Positions 1-3,000 of a stretch of 14,145 nucleotides of DNA are shown one piece after another (the first letter of the stretch is position 1; each line of letters opens with the position of its first letter). This DNA is from a virus (lineage: Duplodnaviria; Heunggongvirae; Uroviricota; Caudoviricetes). A program made the position numbers. The stretch is from the IMG/VR virus record IMGVR_UViG_2740892369_000006; one strand, given 5' to 3'.

Positions 1-3000
1 AACTCATAACAAAAGCAATTCAATGCCGTCAAGAGGTTACAGGCTAAAAAAACTCTATTACATTGCAGTCAGCATGTTTACTACACAAATACAATTCAGA
101 GCATAAAAACTACTCGGCGGCAGGTTATTGAGACTCATCAATGACATGTAAAAAACGCCCATTATTGGTGTCAAGTTTCCCCAAAGTTATTCAAAAAGTC
201 AATATTATGCCGTTAATATGTTGCCATCCGTGGCAATCATGGCGCTAACGTGTGATCGCATTCAAAATGTTGTCTGCGATTGACTCTTCCTTGTGGCATT
301 GCACAACCAGAGCGTCATACAGCGGCTTAACAGTGCGTGACCAGGTGGGTTGGGTAAGGTTTGGGATTAGCATCGTCACAGCGCGATATGCGGCGCTTGC
401 TGGCATTCTTGAATAACCGACGCCTTTACATCTTCCGCACTCTTTCTCAGCAACTATCCCCCACTGCTCTGTTTTGGCTATATCAACCGCACGGCCTGTA
501 CCGTGGCAATCTCTGCATCTTGCGCCCGGCGTAGCGGCACTACGGCAATAATCCGCATAAGCGAATGTTGCGAGCACTTGCAGTACCTTTGCCTTAGTAT
601 TTCCTTCGAGCTTTGCCACACCACGGTATTTCCCCGATACCTTGTGTGCAAATTGCATCAGATAGTTGATAGCCTTTTGTTTGTCGTTCTGGCTGAGTTC
701 ATGCTTACCGCAGAATGCAGCCATTCCGAATCCGGCTTGTGATTGCGCCATCCCCATAGCAGCCATCACATCAGTACCAGAAAGAGAGTCAGAAGCCGTA
801 GCCCGTGGTGAATCGCTCATCATCGGGCTTTTTGGCGAATGAAATTTAGCTACGCTTTCGAGTCTCATGCGCCTTCTCCCTGTACCTGAATCAATGTGAG
901 GTTTCCGCAGAACACTGCGCCAGTATCGATATACATCTGGTTGGCAAATTTGAGTGGTTTCACTGCTGGCGTATGACCAAAGATGAACGTGTCCGCGCCT
1001 TTGATTTCTTTCACGATCCCGTCTTGTGAGTTGCTGATTCGTTCGCGGTTCCAGATTACCTGCTGATGATCAACTGGCTTTCCAAACTCGTATTTATCAC
1101 AAGGATAATCGGCGTGGCAGATGACATATTTTTTTCCTTTACTCACCAGTTCGATGATTAACGGAAGTTCATCTGCTTTATGGGCAAGAGCTTTAGCCAG
1201 AATTTCTTTGTCGTAATCGAGATTAAAGAACCAGCCACCGCCATTAAGCAGCCAGTGATTGACGTTTCCACGCTCTGATAAGCCATCAATCATCATTTGC
1301 TCATGGTTTCCACGTACAGCTCTGAACCAGGGGAATGTGATTAATTCCAGGCATTCTACGTTCTCTGTACCGCGATCAACCAAATCGCCCACCGAGATAA
1401 GCAGGTCTTTTTTGGTGTCGAATCCTATCGTCTCCAGTTTTTTCATCAGGTTCGTGTAGCATCCGTGCAGATCGCCAACTACCCAAATATTTCGGTATTT
1501 GCTGCCATCAATTCTTTCGTAGATATTCATGCAACCTCACTTCTGCTGTTTCGCAGTTTTTTAAGTTTCTGTTGATACTCCGCCTTGATGGCCCTGCACT
1601 CTTCGACAGTCCAGCGATAGCGGTTATGGTTTGATTCGATTTCCTCTACTGCTTCCTGCCCGATGCGGCTAATCAGTTCGACGCGATACGGAACGAGATT
1701 TCCGCTTTTGTGCTGGTTGCACACCACGCATTGCTTGTGAATATTGCGTTCATCAAATCGGAGTTGAGGTGCCGCAGCAGTTGTCCGGTAATGTCCGGCA
1801 TCCCACTGAGCAGACGTGAGCGTTCCGCACGAGATACATGGTAAGTCGCGGTCTCTTTCTCTGATGAAGGCGTTTACGGCTTGTTGGGCTTGTTTAATCC
1901 AGTAACTGCGGGGCTTTAAGGCGAGTTTTCGAATCTTCAGTTTATCTTTCTGTTTCTGCTCCTCTCGTCGTAGTTTCTTCTCTGCTGCTTTTTCCGCTTT
2001 TTCGCGTTCTTTACTTCGTCGTTCGAGTGCTATCTTGGTTCCACAAATCTCATTACACCAATATTGATTTTGATATTTTGGTATAAACCATTCATTGCAA
2101 CATTTACATTTCCTTCGATAGATTCGCATAAGTGCTCCTTTCGTTGCCGGAAAAATCACCGTAATACTTATCTCGGGCTTCTTCAGCAACTAGTACCGCT
2201 AACTCCAGATCATCAAAGCATCCGAAGTGTTTACTCTTGCCATGGAATCCTAGCCTAACATTCCATTTTTTCTGTCGTTTGTGCCAAGTAACCCCTCTGC
2301 AACCTGATTTGCTATTCTTTCGGATCCTTATATTTCTTGAATTTTCTATTGGCAGGCATTCTCTTAAATTTTCTGGCCTATTGTCGGTCCTAATTCCATT
2401 AACGTGGTCAATTTGACCAGCAGGCCAACGATTATGAGTTATGTAAAAAACTAAGACGTGAGTTTTATATCTACGCCCATCTATCATGATCATTGAATAA
2501 CCGTTGGAATCAAAAGTTCCAGCAACACTATTTAATGCTATCCTTCCCTGAGTGGGAACTTTCCATCTAAATACCCCGGTAGATTTATCGAAACTTAGTA
2601 ACTCAAATATCCTTTTAACAGTTAAATCTTCTCTTTTACGGTTACATCGTCTTCGCGCTGGTTTAGCCATCGCCTTCTTCCTCCGTAATGGTTTTCTGAA
2701 TTTGGCCACCTGAACAGAGCTCACCAAAGCTATGGATGTCGGTATTTCCACAATACCAAGATGGCGAAAATAACTGCATGATAAGCCTCAGGGAAAAGGG
2801 AAGACACTACCCCCGATAATTCAGAAACAAATCGAAATACATGAACTAAAGAAAAAACCACAACAAACAGAAATAGAAATAGAAATAGAAATAGAAATAG
2901 AAATAGAAATAGAAATATTAAAACAGACCACCACATTCCTGATGTCATACTCACTAAACAATTTTTCGACAACATGGTAGCTCATAGAACGTTATCGTGT

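Follow-up and report, generated by a model that had tools for sequence, protein, structure and literature searches.

Structure of the interrupted ninG locus

The DNA under study is a window of 14,145 nt, the whole stretch analysed, from IMG/VR record IMGVR_UViG_2740892369_000006 (Caudoviricetes). The distal nin/Q segment of a lambdoid prophage is carried on its minus strand, and at the 5′ end of ninG in this segment lies a 596-nt cassette that encodes a predicted HNH-AP2 endonuclease together with a replacement for the beginning of ninG. The positions of all features are given in Table 1. The locus was compared across 61 insert-bearing loci (IMG/VR prophages, reference records and the window) and 72 insert-free lambda-type ninG loci, the carrier and non-carrier classes being assigned by BLAST. 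Alignment of the window with insert-free phages by BLAST revealed two blocks of homology, a left arm of 42–46 nt (2687–2642) and the ninG body from 2045 downward, of which the latter (1527–2045) is 97–98% identical to phages 434 and HK630. The 596 nt between the blocks (2641–2046) occupy the place of 64 nt (codons 10–31) in insert-free lambda-type ninG. The left arm comprises the last ~17 nt of ninF with the overlapping stop ATGGCTAA, the Shine–Dalgarno (SD) region and nine codons of ninG, and it is now the translation start of the HNH open reading frame (ORF). This ORF begins with MAKPARRRC, and the nine codons and 17 nt upstream are base-for-base those of the insert-free lambda-type ninG start region. 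The nuclease ORF is chimeric, with codons 1–9 contributed by resident ninG and the remainder by the insert. The 46-nt left arm matches insert-free alleles, and one haplotype was common to 16 insert-bearing and 21 insert-free ninF-flanked loci.

Translation of ninG restarts inside the cassette from an ATG preceded by AAGGAG with a spacer of 5 nt, and the restarted gene overlaps the HNH ORF by 26 nt. The new ninG 5′ end has a GC content of 28.6% and the HNH body 39.1%, whereas the lambda-type 5′ end has 50.5% and the ninG body 48.9%. The replacement 5′ end shows 56% nucleotide identity to the lambda-type sequence with a longest shared word of 9 nt. Four cysteines are kept in the encoded NinG, where C8, C11, C25 and C29 align with C9, C14, C28 and C32 of the HK630 and 434 proteins, and Pfam NinG matched with an E value of 1.9e-83, residues 4–194 falling on profile positions 5–192 of 193. 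Since the four cysteines align and the profile match extends from position 5, the replacement 5′ end appears to be a functional homologue of the ninG start and not random filler. The nuclease's own ORF takes 538 of the 596 inserted nt and ninG is restarted, not spliced; no match to a group I intron or other RNA was obtained with Rfam in window 1500–3200 at E ≤ 1. The cassette is composed of the nuclease body, a strong SD sequence and the first 28 codons of a diverged, apparently functionally equivalent ninG.

These results are in agreement, coordinates included, with the original prediction, in which an HNH-AP2 gene had inserted in the 5′ end of ninG with use of the resident start and SD sequence. 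The junctions identified by BLAST, with 596 nt exchanged for 64 nt, locate that insertion, and alignment with insert-free alleles fixes its edges at 2641 and 2046. MAKPARRRC had been taken as the ancestral ninG start, and the NinG proteins of 434 and HK630 indeed begin so. Also confirmed were the restart of ninG 26 nt before the HNH stop, with an AT-rich N-terminus and its own SD sequence, and the proposal that ninG was thereby kept translatable. The junctions are exact and identical in 61 independent loci, which argues that they are not due to chance. An imperfect 20-nt direct repeat at 2612–2652 (2 copies, 80% match, Tandem Repeats Finder score 52) spans the left junction 2641/2642, and could be due to chance or mark microhomology used in the founding recombination.

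In ninF-bearing phages the ninG initiation region overlaps the ninF stop. In the window, the nuclease start is overlapped by the stop of a 38-aa ORF ending …EEEGDG, an arrangement that could allow translational coupling of the two ORFs. Upstream of 2687 the 38-aa ORF, annotated as hypothetical in phage SH2026Stx1, consists of cargo-side sequence; the DNA there is no longer ninF and is instead the flank of an oppositely oriented, AT-rich (about 34% GC) cargo ORF. Neither a promoter-like site nor a convincing terminator was found in window 1900–3300. At the ninG/ninI junction (1527–1530) ninH is absent from the window and from phage 434, and present in HK630, ETEC1717 and SH2026Stx1; several mosaic differences, this among them, occur downstream of the cassette.

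Table 1. Location of the cassette, its parts and neighbouring features in the window.
Feature	Position	Strand	Evidence and remarks
Inserted cassette, 596 nt, 37.6% GC	2046..2641	minus	BLAST junctions, 61 loci
HNH_3 + AP2 endonuclease ORF, 188 aa	2104..2670	minus	ATG 2670–2668, TAA 2106–2104; Pfam, PHROG, AlphaFold2 fold
Replacement ninG 5′ module	2046..2140	minus	SD AAGGAG 2140–2135, ATG 2129–2127, 28 AT-rich codons
Chimeric ninG (Rap), 200 aa	1527..2129	minus	Foreign N-terminal 28 codons and lambda-type body; Pfam NinG
Retained left arm: ninF end, ninG SD region and ninG codons 1–9	2642..2687	minus	BLAST against HK630, 434 and ETEC1717; haplotypes common to insert-free loci
38-aa remnant ORF	2663..2779	minus	Last residues …EEEGDG* a remnant of the NinF C-terminus
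Distal nin/Q segment of lambdoid prophage	245–2751	minus	
ninI phosphatase	1530→865	minus	
Lambda-type Q	868→245	minus	
AT-rich cargo ORF, 590–617 aa	3152/3233–5005	plus	RefSeq start 3233

Family and fold of the encoded nuclease

Pfam searches with the 188-aa ORF gave HNH_3 above the cutoff (4.2e-11, 42.7 bits against a cutoff of 24.8) and AP2 below it (1.8e-4, 22.2 bits against 33.3), and PHROG 99 'HNH endonuclease' matched with 1.4e-71. The AlphaFold2 model of the protein had a predicted local distance difference test score of 82.7, with the regions of low confidence at both termini. The top Foldseek match of the model was I-HmuI (1u3e; probability 0.98, E value of only 0.011), the solved prototype of the His-Me finger group 2 nuclease domain. 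Model residues ~122–172 superposed on the AP2 domains of ERF1, WRI1 and TEM1 with a probability of 1.00 and a root-mean-square deviation of 1.0–1.2 Å (1.2 Å over 51 columns), the AP2 fold matches comprising plant and apicomplexan domains, and PF00847 is present in two relatives of the nuclease. The AP2 assignment, although below the Pfam cutoff, is therefore supported by the fold match. A sequence search of solved structures gave no match except a weak AP2 one, NCBIfam gave none, and the PADLOC defence models gave only a marginal match to ZorE (E = 0.007). Based on these results the protein is assigned, as an I-HmuI-like member with predicted activity, to HNH_3 (His-Me finger group 2), and an AP2 DNA-binding domain forms its C-terminal part. 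The combination of HNH_3 and AP2 is a recognised homing-endonuclease architecture (PMC5714182), and the same homing architecture appears in PMC10448857, which cites Magnani 2004. The classification of His-Me finger nucleases includes NinG/Rap too, as group 24 (PMC5714182). The overlapping frames at 1527–2670 on the minus strand of the window consequently encode a selfish nuclease and a recombination nuclease that belong to one superfamily.

Alignment of the nuclease with nine relatives revealed that D88, H89, N97, N101 and N110 are invariant. The sequences of these relatives cover the window protein from about residue 12–16 to about residue 175, so that the first ~10 and last ~13 residues are extras resulting from fusion to ninG and from read-through into the new ninG start. 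These extra termini are exactly the low-confidence ends of the AlphaFold2 model. The ORF is intact in 60 of the 61 loci and frameshifted in one, and its variant sites comprise 11 synonymous and 12 non-synonymous. Substitutions at family-invariant positions (N97T, N101S or P83T) are confined to single loci among L030, L053, L055 and L062, and in one of these loci the ORF is frameshifted by the loss of 1 nt; the nuclease may be in early decay in these individual prophages.

A word-index search of 5.8 billion proteins placed the nuclease in a 99% cluster of 464 members, beyond which nothing exceeded 47% identity, and a search of the GTDB species representatives returned one unrelated match of 39%. 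In the phage collection the nearest relatives (38–44% identity) come from virulent phages of the Jersey-like and T5-like types; they are free-standing HNH genes, often with multiple copies per genome, and are annotated as homing endonucleases. For the AT-rich NinG N-terminus, a tblastn search of 50,697 phage records found nothing above 62% identity except the cassette itself, an exhaustive HMMER search with the 33-aa N-terminus as query gave 39% as the best foreign match among 1.84 billion representatives, and the word-index search of the same 5.8 billion proteins recovered only fragments of the same allele. The low GC content of both the nuclease and the AT-rich ninG start suggests a joint origin, in a low-GC phage whose ninG was directly preceded by the nuclease. 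The replacement 5′ end would accordingly have been taken from the ninG of such a donor, as a co-conversion tract.

Distribution and diversity of the cassette

Among the phage records, the nuclease was found only in the Stx1 (Shiga toxin 1) phages SH2026Stx1 and AU6Stx1, which account for 4 of 425 matching records (GenBank and RefSeq each); lambda-group phages such as 434 and HK630 lack it. In a survey of 5,426 complete Escherichia coli genomes the cassette was present in 538, at 571 places and up to three per genome, counts that are inflated by clonal lineages of enterohaemorrhagic E. coli (EHEC). All copies are at least 99% identical and all are chromosomal. The O157:H7 reference strain EDL933 is a carrier, and the cassette was found also in Escherichia albertii and Salmonella Infantis. 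Further E. coli genomes with only the insert-free junction are about as many as the carriers. A gene present in 4 of 425 phage records and 538 of 5,426 genomes is not an ordinary conserved nin gene, a case that had been named as one that would contradict an insertion. The prophages of E. coli ETEC1717 and Salmonella Infantis CP150140 have the order ninB–(ninD)–ninE–ninF–HNH–ninG–ninH…Q and differ in this order from HK630 only by the cassette.

The AT-rich ninG start and the nuclease are strictly linked, the same 538 genomes matching both and neither occurring without the other. No allele with the AT-rich ninG start and without the nuclease was detected in the 5,426 E. coli genomes, the one partial match being an IS2 insertion. 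In E. coli Z1323CEC0014 (L148 1261–2489) this IS2 interrupts the AT-rich ninG 5′ end. At another locus (L012, about 4797–5564) the ninG body contains a 768-nt insertion with a 9-bp overlap, IS1-sized.

All 61 insert-bearing loci contain the full 596 nt with the same ends and 99.2–100% identity. The identical boundaries everywhere indicate a single founding event. Nucleotide diversity is at most 0.01 in the insert; it reaches 0.04–0.1 directly past its right edge and in the 20 nt before the ATG. The surroundings are shared with insert-free loci: haplotypes of the left 46 nt and of the first 120 nt on the right are common to carriers and non-carriers, and no fixed difference between the two classes was found over the 540-nt ninG body. 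Several carrier bodies have a non-carrier body, and not another carrier, as their nearest sequence, that of L013 being identical to phage 434, that of L060 having 1 difference from L128 and that of L056 having 3 from L144. At least eight gene orders were encountered among the carriers, with either the cargo or ninF upstream, with or without ninH, and with ninI and lambda Q, Q933 and stx1, or another Q downstream. The stretch of lambda-type ninG that is replaced in carriers is nearly invariant among insert-free alleles.

Identity to the window was compared for the insert and the flanks. The E. albertii locus (L149) and E. coli L058 are 99.3% identical in the insert and 90–97% in the flanks, and ETEC1717 and Salmonella Infantis are 99.3% identical in the insert and 95–96% in the ninG body. 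Since the insert is at most 0.8% diverged while the flanks differ by 3–10%, the cassette is much younger than the divergence of its surroundings, a finding in line with the earlier suggestion of a recently mobile segment. A G>A variant at window position 2037, 9 nt past the right junction (TGTGGAACA…), occurs in insert-bearing loci only, and in only some of these; it may derive from the tract of the original donor.

Proposed homing, competing explanations and significance

The features described above are probably those of a free-standing HNH-AP2 homing-endonuclease cassette in the 5′ end of ninG, self-immune through replacement of the presumed target; cleavage, the position of the target and biased inheritance are what we infer for it. 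In the proposed mechanism, the nuclease would be translated from the initiation region and first nine codons of ninG within the delayed-early pR operon, and NinG/Rap would be re-initiated from the SD sequence of the cassette, upstream of the nuclease stop. During lytic growth or induction beside a second lambdoid genome, the enzyme would nick or cut the conserved ~50% GC lambda-type ninG 5′ region of that genome. Recombination through the ninF/ninG-start arm (left) and the ninG body (right) would then repair the break and, with the carrier as template, copy the cassette into the recipient. The carrier itself would be immune because the target stretch is replaced by the 56%-identical sequence. 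The nuclease and the AT-rich ninG start never occur apart, as would be expected of the parts of one mobile unit.

Several observations weigh against homing. No donor lineage was found in the phage, protein and GTDB searches. The number of carrier genomes owes part of its size to clonal EHEC lineages. The ratio of 11 synonymous to 12 non-synonymous sites suggests that purifying selection on the nuclease is only moderate, and a few copies are altered at family-invariant residues (the singletons N97T and N101S) or frameshifted. Insert-free copies of ninG share chromosomes with the cassette, flank matches occurring at a median of 2 places per genome versus 1 for the insert. Such coexistence is expected if the gene is silent in lysogens and does not speak for activity. 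The haplotypes of the two flanks (46 nt on the left, 120 nt on the right) show no graded co-conversion tract. Furthermore, the conserved flanks would let ordinary Red/RecA recombination move any insertion among mosaic lambdoid phages. Since the ninF and ninG flanks would allow ordinary recombination to scatter the cassette, a clonal insert with diverse flanks does not by itself require nuclease activity.

The same pattern would follow if the cassette were a passive mosaic module, acquired in one illegitimate recombination with a low-GC phage and then shuffled by homologous exchange in the ninF/ninG flanks, the nuclease being inactive or irrelevant to its spread. A single origin is indicated by the identical boundaries, and general recombination is made easy by flanks that are 95–100% identical between phages. 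The missing graded tract, the insert-free copies that remain in the same genomes, and the substitutions at invariant residues and single frameshift agree with this explanation as well. It is nonetheless considered unlikely in view of the ORFs intact in 60 of 61 loci with the catalytic residues kept in the main alleles, a family made up overwhelmingly of homing endonucleases, and the reach of the cassette into three species and many backgrounds at no more than 0.8% divergence. In addition, the presumed target has been precisely swapped for a diverged functional equivalent, an exchange that is needed by homing elements and not by passive inserts.

The many lambdoid prophages in each EHEC genome, the presence of up to three cassettes and further insert-free ninG copies in one genome, and the position of the gene in an early lytic operon could alternatively mean that the nuclease is kept for the damage it does to co-infecting or co-induced lambdoid rivals with a lambda-type ninG (marker exclusion), with self-copying not the main selected effect. 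We regard this as highly improbable. Such a function is inseparable from homing by sequence, as a break in a rival that has both flanks and is repaired from the carrier is homing, and the defence-system models contributed only the marginal ZorE match (E = 0.007). An ordinary phage function, either as a conserved nin gene or as an HNH protein assisting the terminase in packaging, has the simple label 'HNH endonuclease' of the RefSeq and phage records in its favour and is scarcely credible, being already contradicted by the distribution data, with the gene absent from almost all relatives (4 of 425 phage records; not in 434 or HK630), located in the nin region far from the terminase genes, and belonging to the HNH_3/I-HmuI group and not to the packaging-associated HNH group.

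As a probable homing element, the ninG cassette resembles the free-standing HNH and AP2 homing genes of phages, such as 'IPA-HNH' of Vibrio phage ICP1, in having HNH_3 at the N-terminus and AP2 at the C-terminus, and in being a small ORF beside or inside a conserved phage gene with a patchy occurrence among close relatives. It departs from these members in that the nuclease is at most 47% identical to any of them, its N-terminus is borrowed from the host gene and its function is predicted. In addition, the other members are found in virulent phages, whereas the cassette is carried by lambdoid prophages, which are temperate, in E. coli, E. albertii and Salmonella. In phage T4 the mobE gene, located between nrdA and nrdB, adjoins the target of its product, the differing carrier copy is spared, and repair of the break is accompanied by co-conversion of flanking markers, as described in PMC2790892. 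The cassette is comparable to the intron-less homing of the T4 Seg and Mob enzymes in the placement of the nuclease gene next to the presumed target gene and in the differing sequence of the carrier's copy. Intron-less homing by the free-standing endonucleases SegF (at gene 56) and SegG follows the same pattern as MobE. Unlike these systems, the ninG cassette lies within the coding 5′ end, captures the host start and supplies a replacement 5′ segment and SD sequence, and homing is here what we infer; the nuclease families also differ, HNH_3/AP2 in the cassette versus GIY-YIG in the T4 Seg enzymes.

Two further systems combine a nuclease with a resident coding sequence. Gene 31 of Salmonella phage ε34 encodes an eaE-like N-terminus fused in frame to an HNH homing endonuclease (PMC2629481). 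As with the ninG cassette, the phage is temperate (P22-like/lambdoid) and a resident early gene contributes its N-terminus, in frame, to an HNH nuclease of the homing type; unlike the cassette, gene 31 is in the early left operon, its nuclease relatives are in Gram-positive phages, and a replacement 5′ end was not described. In Aeromonas phage Aeh1, insertion of mobE splits nrdA ('genes in pieces') and the host protein is formed by two reassembling polypeptides. Both Aeh1 mobE and the cassette place a homing endonuclease inside a coding region with preservation of the host function; however, the N-terminus of ninG was discarded and a homologous foreign segment stands in its place. Literature searches on ninG, HNH and homing, on the two Stx1 phages and on lambdoid homing endonucleases yielded no account of the insertion into ninG or of its anatomy. 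The class of element is well known, and the twist is the capture of the start codon together with a self-supplied replacement 5′ end.

The cargo ORF on the other side of the nuclease belongs to PHROG 9230, of unknown function, and had no match in Pfam, NCBIfam or PADLOC. A relative in E. albertii (93%) occupies the same prophage slot, and another (71%) is found in an E. albertii chromosomal island beside NleF-like and AvrPphF-ORF-2-like genes; more distant relatives are in Salmonella enterica (48–51%) and Providencia alcalifaciens (50%). From this context the cargo product is a candidate type III secreted effector. The insertion had also been proposed to explain the arrival of the AT-rich cargo, which is not supported, since about a third of the sampled carriers have ninE–ninF and no cargo, and 46 nt of ninF/ninG separate the two elements; the cassette does not need the cargo. 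A synthetic query joining the cargo to an insert-free junction found no uninterrupted match, and hence no cargo allele without the cassette, in the 5,426 E. coli genomes, and 512 two-piece matches of the carrier type. Pairwise BLAST of cargo-bearing loci indicated that the common cargo allele and a 95%-identical allele both carry the same cassette (≥99.3%). Most simply, the cargo arrived in a phage in which the cassette was already present. We think it quite unlikely that the nuclease cassette acts as a drive for the cargo, in which case a break in the recipient ninG would be repaired from a cargo-bearing donor through upstream ninE/dam homology with co-conversion of the roughly 3-kb cargo. 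A hexanucleotide repeat (AAATAG) × 8.8 lies between the cargo gene and the nuclease at 2865–2917. With a 509-nt query of this region, matches of 503–533 nt were obtained across the E. coli genomes, and those in O157:H7 records are confined to the part from the repeat on, which suggests copy-number variation or a breakpoint at the repeat.

If the nuclease is inactive, the cassette is one more mosaic module. If a drive for the cargo did operate, a selfish nuclease would be spreading a virulence-type gene among prophages of EHEC and E. albertii, Stx phages included. A naturally recoded N-terminus of NinG/Rap is usable for structure–function work, and an HNH-AP2 enzyme that reads a specific sequence and for which a candidate target is known would be a useful reagent. 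The cassette is a compact case of a selfish gene that seizes the translation start of its host gene while repairing the damage with a replacement coding segment. If active, it would be a homing element of temperate lambdoid prophages, including Stx1-converting phages and EDL933, in which homing genes have been studied far less than in T4-like and T5-like phages, and it would establish a defined hotspot of directed gene conversion in the nin region that feeds the mosaicism of Stx phages.

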